From: Pachysolen tannophilus NRRL Y-2460
Lineage: Eukaryota
Length of the DNA: 20,000 nucleotides
Reading direction: 5' to 3'
NCBI GenBank assembly: GCA_001661245.1
Contig: KV454013.1
Span: 1,731,654-1,751,653 of the forward strand
The translations under genes and the position numbers were made by a program. Numbering within the stretch: the stretch's first letter is position 1; each line of letters begins with the position of its first letter. Shown here piece after piece: positions 10,951 to 20,000 of this stretch. The notes beneath the pieces were generated by a model. It was given only the letters and a program-made list of their open reading frames with translations, searched no databases and was not told where the DNA came from.

Positions 10951-11913
10951 ATGTCTCTGCCTTTTTTCACTCTTAATAATGGATCTAAGATTCCTGCTGT
11001 TGGTTTAGGTTGCTGGAAATTAGCAAATGAAACTGCTGCAGATATGGTTTATAGTGCCATTAAGCAAGGTTATCGTTTATTTGATGGTGCTTGTGATTAT
11101 GGAAATGAAAAAGAAGTTGGTGAAGGAATTAACAGGGCAATTAAAGATGGTTTAGTTAAAAGAGAGGAATTATTTGTTGTCTCAAAGTTATGGAATAATT
11201 TCCATGCAAAGGAAAATGTTAAGAAAGCTTTTAAAAAACAATTGAGTGATTTAAATTTGGATTACTTGGATTTATATTTAATACATTTCCCAATTGCATT
11301 CAAATTTGTTCCATTTGAAGAAAAATACCCACCGGGATTTTACTGTGGTGATGGTGATAAATTCCATTATGAAGATGTTCCTATAATTGAGACTTGGAGA
11401 GCATTGGAAGAATTGGTTGATGAAGGTTTAGTCAAATCAATTGGTGTTTCAAACTTTAGAGGTGCCTTACTTCAAGATTTAATAAGAGCTGCTAGAATTA
11501 AGCCAGCTTCTTTACAAATTGAACATCATCCTTATTTACAACAAAATGAATTGGTTGAATACGCTCAATCACAAGGTATTGTTGTTACAGGTTACTCCTC
11601 TTTTGGTCCATTATCGTTTATTGAACTAGAAAACGAAATTGCTGCAGGCACTACTCCATTGTTTGAAAATAAAGTCATCACTTCAATTGCTGCAAAACAC
11701 GGAAAGTCACCTGCACAGGTCTTGTTAAGATGGGCAACTCAAAGGGGTATTGCAATTATTCCAAAATCAAATAACCCACAAAGATTATCGGCAAATTTGA
11801 ATGTAAATGACTTTGATTTGACAAAAGAGGATTTTGCAGAAATTGCTAAGTTAGACAAAAACTTAAGATTCAATGATCCATGGACTTGGGACAAAATTCC
11901 AACTTTTGTCTAA
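10951..11913 (+). CDS. XYL1: NAD(P)H-dependent D-xylose/aldose reductase (AKR2B), 320 aa
   Basis: Motifs [16 protein letters not shown] (catalytic Asp and Tyr), SKLWN (Lys), LIHFP (His), [16 protein letters not shown] cofactor motif, [16 protein letters not shown] terminus. Orthologous to S. cerevisiae GRE3. Confidence 0.96.
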
Positions 11914-12007: not shown

Positions 12008-12562
12008 NNNNNNNNNNNNNNNNNNNNNNNNNNNNNNNNNNNNNNNNNNNNNNNNNNNNNNNNNNNNNNNNNNNNNNNNNNNNNNNNNNNNNNNNNNNNN
12101 NNNNNNNNNNNNNNNNNNNNNNNNNNNNNNNNNNNNNNNNNNNNNNNNNNNNNNNNNNNNNNNNNNNNNNNNNNNNNNNNNNNNNNNNNNNNNNNNNNNN
12201 NNNNNNNNNNNNNNNNNNNNNNNNNNNNNNNNNNNNNNNNNNNNNNNNNNNNNNNNNNNNNNNNNNNNNNNNNNNNNNNNNNNNNNNNNNNNNNNNNNNN
12301 NNNNNNNNNNNNNNNNNNNNNNNNNNNNNNNNNNNNNNNNNNNNNNNNNNNNNNNNNNNNNNNNNNNNNNNNNNNNNNNNNNNNNNNNNNNNNNNNNNNN
12401 NNNNNNNNNNNNNNNNNNNNNNNNNNNNNNNNNNNNNNNNNNNNNNNNNNNNNNNNNNNNNNNNNNNNNNNNNNNNNNNNNNNNNNNNNNNNNNNNNNNN
12501 NNNNNNNNNNNNNNNNNNNNNNNNNNNNNNNNNNNNNNNNNNNNNNNNNNNNNNNNNNNNNN
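12008..12562. other. Assembly gap (555 N)
   Basis: Run of N flanked by poly-T/(TA)n low-complexity sequence; isolated Ns at 12566 and 12578. Confidence 0.99.
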
Positions 12563-12902
12563 NTTTNTTTTTTTTTTNTTTTTTTTTTTTGGTTTACTTC
12601 ATTTTACAGTTTTTCCTCAAATATAAGACATCAATTACAATTATTTATCGATCTTTTAAAGAGAGGTTTATGTGTATATATAATAAGGTATCGTCGGTGT
12701 CCTTCATGTATCTGTCCAGAATTTGTCCCCTATATGTGTGTCACTGTTGTGTCTTCAGTGACAGTGTCAAGCAACAAAAATCGCACTACCTTTCTTTCTA
12801 TCTTTTAAAGGTATTTCTGCCGATGTCTTTTGATCTAAGTTGTTTAACGAAATAGCAGTTGTTTCTATGATAAGAAGAAGAATAATTGATAAACGAGATA
12901 TT

Positions 12903-13775
12903 ATGTCACCTTTATTGAAAACTCTTAGTATTGCGTTAATTCAATTGCATACCACGGCAAATAAGTCGTCGAATTTATTAAAAGTCAAGCAATATGTCCA
13001 AAAAGCATTGACTGAGAAACCTAGTTTAGATTTAGTAATGTTACCAGAATGTTTTAATTCTCCTTATTCTGTCACTGAATTTAGAAATTATGCTGAAAAT
13101 GTTCCTAATGGTGAAACTACTAAATTTCTTAGCGAATTGGCAAAGGAACATAAAGTTTTCATTATTGGAGGATCGATTCCTGAGTTAGGCTTAGACAATA
13201 AAGTTTATAATACTTCTCTTTCCTTTGATAAGACAGGAAAGCTTATAGCCAAACATAGAAAAGTTCATTTGTTTGATATTGACATTCCTAATGGGATTAC
13301 TTTTAAAGAAAGTATCACTTTAAGTGGTGGTGAGAAGGCTACAGTTTTTGATTTGGATGGATATGGGAACGTAGGTTTAGGAATATGTTATGATATAAGA
13401 TTCCCAGAATTAGCTGCAATTGCAGCAAGAAAAAACTCTTTTGCAATGTTTTACCCTGGTGCGTTTAACACTACTACAGGTCCACTTCATTGGCATTTAT
13501 TAGCTAGGGCAAGGGCAATTGATAATCAAACTTATGTTGTCTTATGTTCTCCTGCTCGAGATTTATCTAGTGGTTACCATGCTTATGGTCATTCTTTAAT
13601 CGTCGATCCAAATGGTAAAATTATTGTTGAAGCAGGAGAGAATGAAGAAATTGTTTACGGGGAATTAGATCCATCGTATATAGATCAAATCAGATCGGGA
13701 ATCCCAATTACTACCCAGAGAAGATTTGACGTGTACGACGATGTCAGTGTTAATGCTAAAGTCAGTGACATTTAA
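12903..13775 (+). CDS. NIT3: Omega-amidase Nit3 (nitrilase superfamily); an upstream in-frame ATG also exists at 12867
   Basis: Glu-Lys-Cys triad in LPECFNSPY, HRKVHLFDIDIP and GICYDIRFPE; YPGAFNTTTGPLHW. The ORF-track start at 12840 is a TTG. Confidence 0.92.
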   Translation: MSPLLKTLSIALIQLHTTANKSSNLLKVKQYVQKALTEKPSLDLVMLPECFNSPYSVTEFRNYAENVPNGETTKFLSELAKEHKVFIIGGSIPELGLDNKVYNTSLSFDKTGKLIAKHRKVHLFDIDIPNGITFKESITLSGGEKATVFDLDGYGNVGLGICYDIRFPELAAIAARKNSFAMFYPGAFNTTTGPLHWHLLARARAIDNQTYVVLCSPARDLSSGYHAYGHSLIVDPNGKIIVEAGENEEIVYGELDPSYIDQIRSGIPITTQRRFDVYDDVSVNAKVSDI

Positions 13776-13964: not shown

Positions 13965-13976
13965 CCCCAGATTTTT
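13965..13976 (-). promoter_or_regulatory. Putative Mig1/CreA glucose-repression site upstream of the NMO gene
   Basis: CCCCAGATTTTT is the reverse complement of AAAAATCTGGGG, matching WWWWWN-SYGGRG. A second core CTCCGC is at 13943-13948. Confidence 0.4.
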
Positions 13977-14236
13977 CAGCCATACTATTTTTCTTCAAAT
14001 ACAACTCATTTAATCACTTTCACTGGAAGTCATTATTATTCTGTAGAAGTATTCTATATTCTCTCTTATTTACGAATTGCAAAAAAAAAAAAAGAAAAAA
14101 AATATATATGAAAATATAATATAAAAGATAAAAAAACATATTCTTTTATAATAGTCTGAAATCAATGACTTTGTTGCTAAAAAATTGTTCATAATAAGTT
14201 AATTATCTAAATATAATTTTAGTTGTAATTCAAAAG

Positions 14237-15310
14237 ATGACACCTAATGAAGATGCAAATTTAATTCAAGAGCTATTTCCATGGGTTTCCACACCTCCAA
14301 TTATCAGTGCACCAATGCGTGGGGTCTCTGGTCCTGAATTAGCTGTTGAAGTCTCAAAGGCTGGTGGTCTTGGCTTTATTGGACCCGGATTGACTGAATC
14401 TTCTCTAGAATTGAACTTGATTCAAGCAGAGAAATTAGTTGCTGGAATAAGTCAATTTCAAAAATTAGATGTTCTTCCGATAGGTGTTGGTTTTATTGTT
14501 TGGGATAGTGTATTGGAAGTTGCATTAAATGTTATTTTAAAGTATAGACCATCTGCGGTTTGGTTATTTGCCGCACGGGAGGGTCAAAAAGATTTTGATC
14601 TTTGGATCAATAAACTTAATGAGGTTTCACCTGCTACGAAAATATTTATTCAGTTGGGATCTGTTACACAAGCAATTGAAGCTTTCAAGAGCAAATCTAG
14701 ACCTGATTTAATTGTAGTCCAAGGATCTGATGCTGGAGGTCATGGCTTGAAGAAAGGGTGTGGTCTAATCCCACTTTTATTAGAAATTCGTGATAAATTG
14801 GATGAACTTTCATATTCTTTAAAAATTCCAAAATTACCTTTAATCGCAGCAGGAGGAATTGCCGAAGGTCGAGGGGTAGCAGCTTCATTGATATTAGGTG
14901 CTTCTGGAGTTGCAATGGGGACTAGATTCTTGGCATCCAACGAGTCTTTAGTTGCCCAGGGTTATAAGAATGCTTTAATTGAGGCAGAAGATGGAGGTCA
15001 AAATACCAAACGTACATTTTTATTTGATCAGCTTCGTGGCACCACAGGATGGCCAAAAGACTATAATGGCAGGAGTGTAATCAACCAGAGTGTGAGAGAT
15101 GACGAACTCAACAGTATCCCATTTGAAGAAAACAAAAAATTATACGAAGAAGCTTTAGCAAAAGGTGATCAAGGTTGGGGATTTGAGAACGGAAGATTAA
15201 CTACATTTGCTGGTGCTGAAGTTGGCTTGATTAAAAAAATTGAACCTGCTGCTCAACTTGTATTCAAAGTTAGGGAAGATGCAATCAAATGTCTTCATAT
15301 AGCTTTATAA
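14237..15310 (+). CDS. Nitronate monooxygenase / 2-nitropropane dioxygenase family FMN enzyme, 357 aa
   Basis: Motifs IISAPMRGVSGPELAVEVSKAGGLGFIG, VVQGSDAGGHG (catalytic His), LIAAGGIAEGRG, GASGVAMGTRFLAS. Confidence 0.9.
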   Translation: MTPNEDANLIQELFPWVSTPPIISAPMRGVSGPELAVEVSKAGGLGFIGPGLTESSLELNLIQAEKLVAGISQFQKLDVLPIGVGFIVWDSVLEVALNVILKYRPSAVWLFAAREGQKDFDLWINKLNEVSPATKIFIQLGSVTQAIEAFKSKSRPDLIVVQGSDAGGHGLKKGCGLIPLLLEIRDKLDELSYSLKIPKLPLIAAGGIAEGRGVAASLILGASGVAMGTRFLASNESLVAQGYKNALIEAEDGGQNTKRTFLFDQLRGTTGWPKDYNGRSVINQSVRDDELNSIPFEENKKLYEEALAKGDQGWGFENGRLTTFAGAEVGLIKKIEPAAQLVFKVREDAIKCLHIAL

Positions 15311-15734
15311 ACATTAAATTACAATTAATAGCACATGCTTTCCAAAAATCAAGATTATCATTATTACCCATACTGTTTAAAGAAATTACACGATACTTAT
15401 TTTACTTATTTACAATTAACTTATAATATAGGCCTAAAATCTATTTCGCGATAATGCAGTTAGCCGCAGTTCCATTGATAGACAAGTAGTGATAAGATTG
15501 GATCATATTAGTAGCGGGATTATATTTGTGCTGTTTAAATGTAGTATATTACAATGTAACATTTTCTGTTTTCATTTGTAGCCTTTTTCTAGTTAGATAG
15601 CTCATAATCTGCAACTGGTAACGAAAATAAAAAAATGTTACCCCAGTCGATTAGAATTTGTATACATATATAATCAACCAACCACGCAACTTCTAATTCT
15701 AATTAAACAGTCTAAGGAGTATGAATAAAGTAAA

Positions 15735-17069
15735 ATGACTGTGGAACAACCTATTTTGAACTTACTTGTTATAGGAGCTGGAGGAAGAGGAGAAGCTTAT
15801 ACCAATGCCTTGAAAACTTCTAAATTTGTTAAAATTACAGGTATTGCTGACCCTAATACAGTCAGGCTAAAGAATTTGAAAAATTTTTACTTAGGTTTGA
15901 GGCCTGATATGGACAGCAGTGAAATTAAAGAATATTCTGATTGGAAAAATTGTGTTGAAGATGCTAATCTTTACCATGGTGTTTTGATTTGTGTAATGGA
16001 CCAAATGCATAGGGATGTTGCAGTGACATTTGCTGATTTAGGTAAGCATCTATTATGTGAGAAGCCAATGGCTACCACCTGGCAAGAATGTAAGGATATC
16101 TTTGATGCAGTTATTAGAAACAACGTCTTATTGGCTGTTGGTCATGTCTTGCGTTATTCACCTCACAATGTTATGTTGAAGAGTTTATTAGATGAGGGAG
16201 CCGTTGGTGATATCGTTAATATCAATCATACCGAGCCTGTTGGTTTCCAGCATTTTGCACATTCATATGTAAGAGGTAATTGGAAAAACCAAAAGACCTC
16301 AACTTTTTCATTGATGGCAAAATGTTGTCATGATATTGATGTCTTAATGTGGATTCTTGGAAGTGATAATTGTAAGAAAATTTCTTCTTTCGGTTCTCTT
16401 TCGCATTTCAAAAAAAGTAAAAAGCCTTTGAAAGCAGGAAATGCAGTTAGATGCCTTGATTGTGAAGCAGAGTCCAATTGCTGTTACTCTGCTAAAAAAA
16501 TTTATTTTGATTCTTTTGAAAAAGGTTCAAAAGGCTGGCCTGTTAGAGCGATTACTGACATAGAAGATATTCCTCATATTATTGAAGCTCTAGAAAATTC
16601 TGATTATGGGAAATGTGTGTATGAATCAGATAATAATGTTCTTGATAACCAGATTGTGTCCCTTGATTTTGGGGATGTAACTGCAACAATGACAATGGTG
16701 GCATTTTCAAAAGAAATATGTTTCAGAAAGATGTGTTTTTATGGAACTAAGGGTGAGATTTATTCAGATTCAAAGACCATTCAAGTCTACGATTTTTTAA
16801 CAGACAAGACTACAGAATATAAGCCGGAGATTGTTGAAGAGTCAGGACATGGAGGCGGTGACTTGGGTTTGGCCGCATGTTTTGCTGGGGCCATGAGAGA
16901 TGTTATTATTAACCAAAAGCCTCTTGCTGAAGCTCAAATCGATAATATCAAGTGTACTCCAATGGACATGTTGGTATCTCACAAAGTTGTATTTTTAGCA
17001 GAACAAGCTAGGTTAAAAGGTACTGTAGTTGATATCAACGATGAGATTATTTCAGATCTCTTTGTATGA
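15735..17069 (+). CDS. Gfo/Idh/MocA-family NAD(P)-dependent oxidoreductase (YteT/StrI-like subgroup), 444 aa
   Basis: Rossmann VIGAGGRG, LCEKPMA, GHVLRYSP, HFAHSYVRGNW, AKCCHDID, Cys cluster CLDC-x5-CCYSA...GKCVY, GHGGGD. Confidence 0.9.
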   Translation: MTVEQPILNLLVIGAGGRGEAYTNALKTSKFVKITGIADPNTVRLKNLKNFYLGLRPDMDSSEIKEYSDWKNCVEDANLYHGVLICVMDQMHRDVAVTFADLGKHLLCEKPMATTWQECKDIFDAVIRNNVLLAVGHVLRYSPHNVMLKSLLDEGAVGDIVNINHTEPVGFQHFAHSYVRGNWKNQKTSTFSLMAKCCHDIDVLMWILGSDNCKKISSFGSLSHFKKSKKPLKAGNAVRCLDCEAESNCCYSAKKIYFDSFEKGSKGWPVRAITDIEDIPHIIEALENSDYGKCVYESDNNVLDNQIVSLDFGDVTATMTMVAFSKEICFRKMCFYGTKGEIYSDSKTIQVYDFLTDKTTEYKPEIVEESGHGGGDLGLAACFAGAMRDVIINQKPLAEAQIDNIKCTPMDMLVSHKVVFLAEQARLKGTVVDINDEIISDLFV

Positions 17070-17395
17070 GGAAAGAAATATATCTTAGAAAAAAAAAAAC
17101 CGTTTTCAAATTTTAGTTAATGTAGTTTTCGATTTCATTCTTATAGTAAATATCATAATTTTTCATTTTTAATTCAAAAAAACTATTAAGTAAAAATTTA
17201 TAGTAAGATGAACTTAGTTATACATAATAAAGTCAAATAGGACAGACAGTACTATCGGGTTTGGATATTGTACTCAATCATCCATTAAAAACTGTTTTAG
17301 GAAATTTTCAAGATACAACCTAATTAACTATATTGGTTACGTGAGGCTACCTGATGGTGCATTTCCGAACATATACAAACCACATAATGTTGCAA

Positions 17396-17405
17396 ATTTC
17401 ACATG
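17396..17405 (-). promoter_or_regulatory. Perfect UAS-INO/ICRE consensus (CATGTGAAAT on the minus strand)
   Basis: The plus strand reads ATTTCACATG, about 505 bp upstream of the transporter ATG. Confidence 0.35.
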
Positions 17406-17577
17406 AGGTACAAAATTTATTATGATTATTTATTTGTAGAAAGATAGACAAGTTGTGTCCCCTGAATAAGTGTTCCATTATATGGAAAATAATAGCAGGG
17501 AAGTGAGTACACTTTCAATGTTTATCGTACATATTACAATGTATCCCAATTATATGCGGCTCAAATTTACAATACTT

Positions 17578-17748
17578 GATAAGACTTTTAATATCAAAGA
17601 TAAGGAAGTTACATTGATGAAATAAGATGCAAATAATAAAAAATAAAAAATAAAAAGTAACCACTAGAGATCAATGCTTACAATGTTACATAAATGATCT
17701 TGGATCCGATTGAGCAGGTAATATAGGGGAACATTCTTATCAGATAAA
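17578..17748. promoter_or_regulatory. Cluster of GATA-factor sites upstream of the MFS transporter
   Basis: GATAAG at 17578-17583 and 17599-17604; CTTATC at 17736-17741 back-to-back with GATAAA at 17743-17748. Confidence 0.5.
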
Positions 17749-17910
17749 GATTCTGAACATAAAAGGTGCTGTCGTTAAACTTTATATATAATACTATAAT
17801 GAATATATTAGTTTTTTTTTTTTTGTTTTCAGTTCTTTGTCTTCTTAGGTTCTGTTTTTAGTTAGTATTAACTTCAACTAGGATTTTTTTCAAAAGAACG
17901 TAGAAAGGTA

Positions 17911-19440
17911 ATGATGACTAGTGACAAAGAAATCTTATCTACTATTCCAGATAGTCATGTTGAATCAACAGACACTGAGAAAGAAAGTGTTTCAAAAGGT
18001 GCATATATCGATATAAGTATTGAAGAGGTCTCAAAAGAAGAGAATGCTGATTTGGAATCTTTGAGCTCCATTGATAACAATAAGTGGTACAATAAGAGTA
18101 AGACCATATTTGGTTATAAGTTACTACCTTATTCACAAGGTCGAAGTCAAATATTGATGGTTTCCTTTGTTGTCTTTATGATTGTAGGTATGTCTTCCGC
18201 AATTGGTGGTTTAGGAGCTGGAGGTACATTAAATGCAACTGTTGTGAACAATTCAAATGTGGCAGTTTATACTGCTTTTGCATTTTTAGCGTTCTTTTGT
18301 GGGCCAATTTGTAACAAAATTGGAGTAAGAGCTACTTTGTGCTTTGGAGGTTGGGGTTATGCGTTATACTATGGTTCTTTACTTTGTTATAATAAAACTG
18401 GTAATGGTACTTTTGTAATTGCCTCAGGAGCTATAGAAGGTCTTTGTGCTGCATTTTTATGGACTGCACAAGGTAATATTATGCTCAGTTACTCAGAGGA
18501 AGAAAATAAAGGGAAGAACATTGCAAGATTCTGGGCGATCTTCCAGATGGGAAATGTTATTGGTTCTTTGGTTCCTTTGATTCAAACAATTCATTCCACA
18601 AGTGAAACACTAGCTGATAGTACTTACATTGCTTTTATAGTAATTATATCTACGGGTGCAATTATGGCTACCATGTTATTACCAACAAGACTCGTTCGGA
18701 AGGCGGACGGAACGAGAGTCATTTTAAAGAAAAATCCAACTTGGAAATCAGAGATGAAAGCTCTATGGACAGTTTTAAAACTCCAACCGTGGTTCATTGG
18801 AATGTTTCCTATGTTTTGGTCGAGTAATTGGTTTATGACTTACGAGTCTAATGATTACAACTTAGTCCAATTTAATCTTAGAACGAGATCACTCAATAAC
18901 CTAATGTTTGCTATTTTTGAAGTACTAGGTGCATTCAGCGCAGGATATTTGCTTGATTCAAGATTTTGTTCTAGAAAAACAATGGCCAGAATTGGGTGGG
19001 GTCTATTAATGGGTTTTACATTAATTATATGGGGTGGTGGCTTAAAGTCACAACTTAGATATACTAGACAAACCGTTGATGATGATGAGCTTAGTCTATT
19101 AGACTGGACGAGTTCTGGATATGGGGCATATTTAGTACTATATATGCTATATGGAGCATTTGATGCTTGGTGGCAGACATATTCTTACTGGGTGATGGGT
19201 TCCTTGACCAATTCTTCGAGAAAGTTGGCCATTTATACAGGTTTTTACAAGAGCATCCAATCAGCTGGGGCAGCAGTAGTTTGGAGATTAGATGCATTGG
19301 ATACGCCCTACATGGCCATGTTTGGGTCAACCTGGGGATTATTATTGGGATCATTGCTTATTGCTTCCCCTGTTATTTATTCTCGAATTTTAGAAGAAAC
19401 TGATCCAGATGATGACATAAAATTTACAGAGAATGACTGA
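17911..19440 (+). CDS. UNC93-like (DUF895) major facilitator superfamily transporter, 509 aa
   Basis: Acidic N-terminal tail then about 12 hydrophobic segments; family-like motifs GMSSAIGGLGAGG, AAFLWTAQG, FWAIFQMG, FWSSNWFMTY, RTRSLNNL, GFYKSIQSAGAAVVW. Tandem ATGs at 17911 and 17914. Confidence 0.88.
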   Translation: MMTSDKEILSTIPDSHVESTDTEKESVSKGAYIDISIEEVSKEENADLESLSSIDNNKWYNKSKTIFGYKLLPYSQGRSQILMVSFVVFMIVGMSSAIGGLGAGGTLNATVVNNSNVAVYTAFAFLAFFCGPICNKIGVRATLCFGGWGYALYYGSLLCYNKTGNGTFVIASGAIEGLCAAFLWTAQGNIMLSYSEEENKGKNIARFWAIFQMGNVIGSLVPLIQTIHSTSETLADSTYIAFIVIISTGAIMATMLLPTRLVRKADGTRVILKKNPTWKSEMKALWTVLKLQPWFIGMFPMFWSSNWFMTYESNDYNLVQFNLRTRSLNNLMFAIFEVLGAFSAGYLLDSRFCSRKTMARIGWGLLMGFTLIIWGGGLKSQLRYTRQTVDDDELSLLDWTSSGYGAYLVLYMLYGAFDAWWQTYSYWVMGSLTNSSRKLAIYTGFYKSIQSAGAAVVWRLDALDTPYMAMFGSTWGLLLGSLLIASPVIYSRILEETDPDDDIKFTEND

Positions 19441-19728
19441 AAATCGACAGTTTTGCTAATATTTTTTTTTAACTCTAACTACTTCTCAAATTTTAGAGAT
19501 GATAATACATACTATATTTGTATTACCCCTTTTTGTTGTTATTACTTTAAATATATAATTTATCAAAGTATTATTTGTGTACGTAAAATCTCAAGTAAAT
19601 AAAATTAATATAAAGTAGATAAGAAGAAGATTGAATAAAATAGATGTTGAGTTTATTTAAGTAATGGAAATTGACAGTAATTTCTAGACAGATGTGAATG
19701 TCCGCAAATGTTGAAATGAAGAAACTGG

Positions 19729-20000
19729 TGGTGTGAGAGGTGTGAGAGGTGTGAGAGTGGTGTGAGTGGTGTGAGTGGTGTGAGTGGTGTGAGTGGTGTG
19801 AGTGGTGTGAGTGGTGTGAGTGGTGTGAGTGGTGTGAGTGGTGTGAGTGGTGTGAGTGGTGTGAGTGGTGTGAGTGGTGTGAGTGGTGTGAGTGGTGTGA
19901 GTGGTGTGAGTGGTGTGAGTGGTGTGAGTGGTGTGAGTGGTGTGAGTGGTGTGAGTGGTGTGAGTGGTGTGAGTGGTGTGAGTGGTGTGAGTGGTGTGAG
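19729..20000 (+). repeat. Telomeric repeat array, 9-bp unit TGGTGTGAG
   Basis: 27 perfect units from 19758 to 20000, preceded by TGGTGTGAG, two AGGTGTGAG and an extra AG. The G-rich strand runs 5'->3' toward the sequence end, as expected for a right telomere. Confidence 0.95.

Follow-up and report, generated by a model that had tools for sequence, protein, structure and literature searches.

Three co-oriented genes stand at the very end of a chromosome of the yeast Pachysolen tannophilus NRRL Y-2460, and the question raised by this locus is whether they serve one catabolic pathway or are neighbours that act separately. The window analysed here, a stretch of 20,000 nucleotides, is the final 20 kb of contig KV454013.1 (contig C3) in a genome of 12.6 Mb. 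It carries on its + strand a nitronate monooxygenase-family gene (NMO; 14237..15310, 357 aa, FMN-dependent family), a gene for a YteT-like Gfo/Idh/MocA NAD-binding oxidoreductase (referred to as Gfo; 15735..17069, 444 aa) and a gene for an UNC93-like (DUF895) transporter of the major facilitator superfamily (MFS; 17911..19440, 509 aa, 12 helices). Each was found as one uninterrupted + strand open reading frame (ORF), and Pfam assigned them to NMO (PF03060, E 2e-33), GFO_IDH_MocA (PF01408, 2e-21) and UNC-93 (PF05978, 2e-17) together with MFS_1 (5e-17). The original prediction had described them as co-oriented members of these families following an amidase and an aldose reductase, with which the ORFs and Pfam agree. 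It had further joined all three into an uptake-plus-oxidation pathway for a nitrogen-containing sugar or cyclitol. The evidence presented below did not bear this out: they are probably accessory catabolic genes that each act separately and have come together at a chromosome end, rather than the steps of one pathway.

The predicted subtelomeric location was confirmed. An array of a 9-bp unit in about 30 copies (19728..20000, + strand) forms the end of the contig and starts 288 bp past the stop codon of the transporter gene, the last gene, and the same repeat caps other contigs with its G-rich strand outward. Because the window ends the contig and this repeat marks other contig ends as well, the array was taken to be the telomere. 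Eleven contig ends were fetched, and telomeric arrays were found on seven. At these seven other telomeric ends, a transporter was encoded at six, an oxidoreductase or oxygenase at four and both within 10 kb at three, while one end carried five co-oriented genes. Since other telomeric ends also hold sets of transporters and oxidoreductases, the gene composition of the window is ordinary for this genome. The three genes matched 56 baseline ORFs in codon fit, lying within their spread, and CTG was absent from all three. This ordinary codon use ruled out a recent horizontal transfer of the three-gene block, and therefore a recent joint import. Between 12600 and 19725, no coding difference was found against the contigs of four sequencing runs (one sample).

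The linkage of the genes was compared in four yeasts with locus tags, and the Gfo and UNC93 tags were adjacent in none of them: Kuraishia (Gfo 2074; UNC93 2034 and 2228), Sugiyamaella (3771; 4273), Blastobotrys (D12474; D00946) and T. ciferrii (003803; 004094). Quick gene trees (LG+G4) of the three proteins were discordant, with the NMO placed among Pezizomycotina proteins, whereas Gfo and the transporter were both placed with Kuraishia. Around YteT-like homologues, no NMO or UNC93 gene was found at any of 42 loci, nearly all of which were prokaryotic. The 19 metagenome neighbourhoods retrieved, which held neither an NMO nor an UNC93 gene, were mostly bacterial, with a single eukaryotic, non-fungal-looking contig, and are no test of fungal linkage.

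No motif common to all three promoters was found either. The motif P values given here come from 2000 shuffles over nine tests and are uncorrected. The consensus of a Mig1 site is an SYGGGG core with an AT-rich flank. A Mig1/CreA-type candidate site of this kind lies upstream of the NMO gene (13965..13977, - strand; shuffle P 0.014), whereas the core upstream of Gfo (15641..15646, - strand; P 0.057) has no good AT-rich flank, so that only one of the two predicted CCCCAG cores carries it. The transporter is preceded by three GATAAG sites (17578, 17599 and, in reverse, 17736; 17578..17741), where 0.44 would be expected (P 0.009), which make up a putative promoter of the GATA-factor (nitrogen catabolite repression) type. 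A single GATAAG at 15491 precedes Gfo (P 0.19). The positions of these cores had been read correctly in the original prediction; at 17743 the sequence is GATAAA. GATAAG was absent from the NMO promoter and SYGGGG from the transporter promoter, and the Gfo promoter had one weak copy of each. Among ten comparison promoters, SYGGGG occurred in four and GATAAG in seven, and modest weight is given to these motifs. When the best matches between promoters were ranked among 153 pairs, NMO-Gfo came 145th, NMO-transporter 94th and Gfo-transporter 48th, the pairs shown above the last being poly-A type matches. The Gfo-transporter match is an 11-mer that lies before Gfo, followed by the GATAAG at 15491 (15477..15496, + strand; weak and post hoc), and again 468 bp before the transporter ATG (17443..17453, + strand). 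This 11-mer occurs four times in the genome, compared with six for its reversed control, and its two remaining copies are unremarkable. The Ndt80-type consensus CRCAAA was also tried as a mark of an N-acetylglucosamine (GlcNAc) regulon; it was discarded as uninformative because the promoters of the genome's own GlcNAc cluster, described below, lack it. Absent linkage, discordant phylogenies and absent co-regulation had been named beforehand as observations that would speak against a joint pathway, and in the yeasts, trees and promoters covered there was no linkage, no agreement of the trees and no common regulatory element.

The NMO has a history of its own. Its named relatives among the best 120 of 2087 matches were from Pezizomycotina and Lipomyces (46-52% identity), and Kuraishia, Sugiyamaella, Trichomonascus and Blastobotrys were not named among these 120, nor was the Neurospora enzyme. 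In two trees, it formed a long branch without resolved position inside a 99%-supported clade of filamentous ascomycete and Lipomyces proteins. Joint inheritance with the Lipomyces NMO was considered, and the corresponding grouping was rejected (p-AU 4e-5). These data suggest a history separate from that of Gfo and the transporter, with which an old transfer and a loss in other yeasts would both be compatible. The trees place the Lipomyces NMOs (P0157, P0173 and P0370), with high support, inside a group made up mostly of Aspergillus and Penicillium proteins, which likely reflects a transfer from filamentous fungi. No functional study was found in a literature search on the Pachysolen NMO and on NMO transfer in yeasts.

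No other clear NMO-family gene was found in the genome, a second match being weak at 28 bits. The protein shares PF03060, the FMN barrel, the GGH histidine and the N-terminal Met with class I PaNMO/CsNMO and, presumably, with the Neurospora class II enzyme; all 72 aligned rows had the histidine (H169), and the N-terminal Met (M27) was conserved. Its profile stood slightly closer to FabK (143 bits on FabK, 129 on class I NMO structures), and its Gly85 aligned to an Asn of FabK, a position which we take to be that of the class I active-site Asn. The FabK-like score and this Gly together make membership of class I the less likely reading. According to PMC11510023, the class I active site consists of Met, Asn, His, Tyr and Lys, and class I enzymes are propionate-3-nitronate specialists. 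Under the favoured reading of separate functions, the NMO would be a flavoenzyme under glucose repression, and its most likely role is detoxification by the oxidation of alkyl nitronates or nitroalkanes, which yields a carbonyl and nitrite. The genome carries a nitrate/nitrite reductase cluster, by which the nitrite released could be used through the organism's own nitrite reductase.

These observations bear on the proposal that all three genes serve a plant nitro-glycoside, for instance a glucose conjugate of 3-nitropropanol or 3-nitropropanoate, which would be imported, cleaved by Gfo and denitrified as the aglycone by the NMO. The chemistry would be coherent if Gfo were a glycosidase, the genes are adjacent and co-oriented, and nitrite is assimilable. 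However, the NMO has other relatives than Gfo, and its best 120 matches named none from the yeasts of the Gfo clade, which is no proof of absence; at least one of the residues that typify class I is absent from the protein; and the transporter descends from an N-acetylhexosamine carrier. Together with the empty count at 42 of 42 mostly prokaryotic YteT-like loci and the promoters without an element common to all three genes, this makes a nitro-glycoside pathway very improbable, and the nitro-glycoside that the original prediction gave as one example of a substrate found no support.

The transporter is, judged from its sequence, a diverged paralogue of the GlcNAc importer Ngt1. It was 48% identical over 503 columns to Yarrowia YALI0D09801p, and the tree joined it to yeast Ngt1 proteins in a clade of 99% support. 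YALI0D09801p is named NGT1 in PMC4376941, and PMC12570498 states that deletion of Ylngt1 abolishes growth on GlcNAc. The window protein shares the UNC93-like/DUF895 MFS family, with PF05978, the MFS fold and 12 helices, with Yarrowia YALI0D09801p, Candida albicans Ngt1 and Trichoderma NGT1. It differs from them by its separate subclade, its altered residues and its place outside the GlcNAc cluster. The subclade (100% support, five members) consists of this protein, two Kuraishia copies (65-66% identity to it) and two further proteins, the other members being 53-66% identical to the window protein. At the positions corresponding to N80, N195 and Q320 in Candida Ngt1 numbering, the transporter has S96, Q212 and E337. 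All five members of the subclade have S, then Q or K, and then E, whereas 115 of 115 other listed matches have N, N and Q. Only 4 of 69 near-invariant columns were altered in all five members, three of them being these positions and the fourth a change from Tyr to Phe. The numbering is anchored through a Candida viswanathii match, which fitted 17 of the 21 C. albicans Ngt1 positions quoted in bioRxiv 10.1101/2025.04.14.648653 at one offset; the residue roles given there for C. albicans come from docking only.

In the model of the transporter, S96, Q212 and E337 lie in helices 1, 5 and 8, which usually line the cavity of MFS proteins. Searches with the transporter against solved structures returned generic MFS folds only. 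Because polar intramembrane positions that are invariant elsewhere are altered in all five members of the clade, the data suggest that the substrate has changed, to a different and possibly cationic amino sugar. More speculatively, the new acidic residue E337 would favour a sugar with a free amine, for instance glucosamine. The amino-sugar idea of the original prediction is thus retained for the transporter alone and given up for a three-gene pathway. Alternatively, the protein might be a redundant or relaxed second GlcNAc importer whose residue changes reflect neutral drift, an explanation limited to the transporter, under which the three genes could still have separate functions. Consistent with this, 111 of the 125 columns near-invariant among 17 Ngt1-type proteins were kept, including the equivalents of W167, N289 and Q435. 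Nevertheless, changes at just these polar positions throughout the clade suggest selection for a new cavity, and we regard drift as unlikely. In our preferred reading, the transporter would be a duplicated Ngt1 with a changed substrate cavity, expressed under nitrogen limitation, that most likely imports an amino sugar other than GlcNAc.

An ordinary GlcNAc locus is present elsewhere in the genome. The closest genomic paralogue of the transporter (50% identity) stands head to head with a glucosamine-6-phosphate deaminase gene on contig C1 (~153,700-163,500; L054, L055), in a cluster of UNC93, deaminase, amidohydrolase, GH3 and NDT80 genes. This matches the fungal GlcNAc catabolic cluster set out in PMC4950302, which comprises ngt1, hxk3, dac1, dam1, nag3 and ron1. 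No hexokinase gene was found among the neighbouring ORFs scanned at the C1 cluster; four hexokinase-family genes lie elsewhere in the genome. The window has the transporter family in common with that fungal cluster, but contains no kinase, deacetylase, deaminase, GH3 or regulator, and is therefore not a GlcNAc cluster. A third UNC93-like paralogue (~28% identity to the one in the window; L056:4781-8429, contig C2) is divergent from a 2-oxoglutarate dioxygenase gene. The 1-kb promoter between them contains seven GATAAG sites, and this pair is a stronger candidate for nitrogen regulation.

Gfo belongs to the YteT-like subfamily, which is found in fungi, animals and bacteria, and is its single copy in the genome. 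Its yeast clade (99% support) includes Kuraishia (nearest, 63% identity), Trichomonascus, Sugiyamaella and Blastobotrys. It was 42-63% identical over the full length to fungal, mollusc, fish and springtail members of the putative oxidoreductases annotated as YteT-like, 'StrI-like' or zgc:154075, and 30-39% identical to bacterial YteT-like proteins, making it a direct member with no family-level difference. Full-length similarity, the HFAHSYVRGNW motif, a four-Cys insert and GHGGGD were all present, these features being drawn from our own alignment of 76 rows and not from a published definition. Four Cys (240, 243, 249 and 294), K110, E167, H199 and H372 (of GHGGGD) were invariant in 76 of 76 rows; H137, K196, D200, D202 and D376 are also invariant. 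The four Cys make up a probable metal site.

The structure model of Gfo (pLDDT 96.5) was nearest to the GH188 NAD-dependent sulfoquinovosidases (Z 38.0, rmsd 2.5, 340 aligned residues, 18% identity), with which an uncharacterised oxidoreductase tied; sugar dehydrogenases scored 1-2 Z lower. The best profile matches were YjhC and RgNanOx, and the best single-sequence match was levoglucosan dehydrogenase. With this group, consisting of GH188 (SqgA)/GH109, YjhC/RgNanOx and levoglucosan dehydrogenase, Gfo shares the Gfo/Idh/MocA fold (Foldseek TM 0.66-0.67, Z 37-38), the EKP lysine, the HxD histidine and a GHGG-type histidine; it differs by identities of 16-21% (16-19% in structural comparison with GH188) and by the invariant four-cysteine insert. 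As described in PMC10755693, GH188 and GH109 are metal-independent and share two catalytic histidines, one of them in a GGHGG loop (H193/H321 in ArSqgA and H259/H404 in AmGH109A). H199 and H372 of Gfo fit these histidines by motif and spacing only and would be their equivalents. The C-terminal profile matched GH188 weakly (E 0.15-0.63). No GH109 entries were among the matches listed for the profile, Foldseek and Z-scored structure searches, which does not exclude them, and no NCBIfam model reached its cut-off for Gfo. A link to an inositol pathway through INO1 in the window was considered and found no support, as inositol dehydrogenase models gave 70 bits against cut-offs of 355-540. The ESM Atlas returned nothing for the window proteins beyond the Pfam families, and a literature search on yteT, StrI with GlcNAc and zgc:154075 found no functional study of YteT-like proteins.

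The neighbourhoods of bacterial relatives were scanned at 19 of 23 loci fetched, with selected ORFs only, some redundant loci and no random control. Sugar-catabolic neighbours were found at 13 of the 19, with many sugars named, and hexosamine-directed hydrolases at only two to three. Gfo is very likely a sugar or glycoside enzyme, and its most likely predicted activity is to oxidise a pyranose or glycoside at C3 in an NAD+-dependent reaction that may also cleave the substrate. The closest actinobacterial YteT-like genes (L006, L007 and L009) lie directly behind a ROK-family regulator at three of four such loci. Two further Gfo/Idh/MocA genes in the P. tannophilus genome (L063 and L065; contig C4) each adjoin a PhyH dioxygenase gene.

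Several observations weigh against our reading of three separate functions. In Kuraishia, both transporter genes share a scaffold with Gfo, at distances of 40 and 154 tags, either by chance or as a remnant of former linkage. Among the four yeasts with locus tags that the comparison covered, only the Kuraishia transporters belong to the window protein's clade, those of the other three being of the ordinary Ngt1 type, so the test of linkage between true orthologues amounts to none of one. Furthermore, Kuraishia is the sister genus for Gfo and the transporter alike, sugar chemistry is suggested by both proteins, and their common 11-mer reached a shuffle P of 0.023, though picked post hoc from three pairs.

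On this basis, Gfo and the transporter could form a two-gene module with the NMO as a bystander. The altered Ngt1 would import an amino sugar, for example glucosamine or galactosamine, or a small hexosaminide such as a glycoside of either, in keeping with the Gln-to-Glu changes, which would suit a free amine. The YteT-like enzyme would oxidise C3 or cleave the substrate by the NAD+-recycling mechanism of GH109 and GH188, feeding the Nag1 pathway. Besides the shared genus and 11-mer, the Ngt1 ancestry with its three clade-wide changes, the likeness of the Gfo model and profile to GH188, YjhC and RgNanOx, the placement of H199 and H372, and the sugar-catabolic bacterial neighbours are consistent with such a module. 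On the other hand, the two genes are apart in Kuraishia, and the Gfo clade has members in four named yeasts of the Trichomonascus/Sugiyamaella/Blastobotrys group, in none of which a transporter like that of the window was identified. Of the other two 11-mer copies, one precedes an unrelated gene and one falls within an ORF, GH188 identity is low and plain dehydrogenases follow within 1-2 Z, the bacterial neighbours name many sugars, and the Ngt1 residue roles are docking-derived. We therefore regard this module as a lesser possibility. Its fullest version, in which a neofunctionalised Ngt1 (N/N/Q to S/Q/E) and the YteT-like enzyme constitute an undescribed eukaryotic route for a non-acetylated amino sugar or hexosaminide, is doubtful, and the processing by NAD+-dependent C3 oxidation or GH188/GH109-like cleavage that belongs to this joint claim shares that doubt. 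In the literature searched, which included few subscription papers and no supplements, no description was found of the gene set, of a YteT-like activity or of an Ngt1 paralogue with S/Q/E. Independent subtelomeric neighbours, the fallback offered in the original prediction, remain the best explanation, with the YteT-like protein most likely acting on its own account as an NAD+-using enzyme that oxidises a pyranose or glycoside at C3.

Outside the proposed module, a carbon-nitrogen hydrolase gene (12867..13775, + strand; ORF list and Pfam), presumably NIT3/omega-amidase-like, is preceded by an aldo/keto reductase gene (10951-11913; Pfam). Between the two lies an assembly gap (12008-12578) of about 556 N with additional single N positions, and a 248-aa ORF spanning it is an artefact. 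All four runs showed one extra A at position 17088, in a non-coding poly-A tract after the Gfo stop codon. An amino-acid permease gene just upstream of the window (L058:7903-9716) and a 5-oxoprolinase-like gene (L060:1278-5224) are each broken into two consecutive ORFs by an intron, a frameshift or a sequence error. At the left telomere of contig C2 (L073, 1-10000), a DUF924 gene, a GH92 glycosidase gene and an MFS transporter gene were observed. A named P. tannophilus protein differed from its genome gene by a short N-terminal gene-model difference, three Ala-for-Leu readings and one Ile/Val, and CUG is most likely decoded as Ala in this yeast.

As a cluster, the three genes carry little weight, since sets of an oxidoreductase and a permease are usual at the chromosome ends of this yeast. 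Two of the proteins are useful leads, one a modified form of a familiar transporter and the other its neighbour, an enzyme that is widespread but uncharacterised. The three altered residues of the transporter make it a natural test of why Ngt1 is specific for GlcNAc, which serves dimorphic and pathogenic fungi as a signalling sugar; the protein may itself be dedicated to importing sugars of the glucosamine type. The YteT-like protein, compact and free of introns, should be easy to express and screen, and it represents a widespread family in which a probable metal site is combined with catalytic residues resembling those of glycosidases. If the two-gene amino-sugar route were true, it would provide the first function for an enzyme family whose conservation extends from bacteria to fish, and would define a new specificity class of Ngt1.

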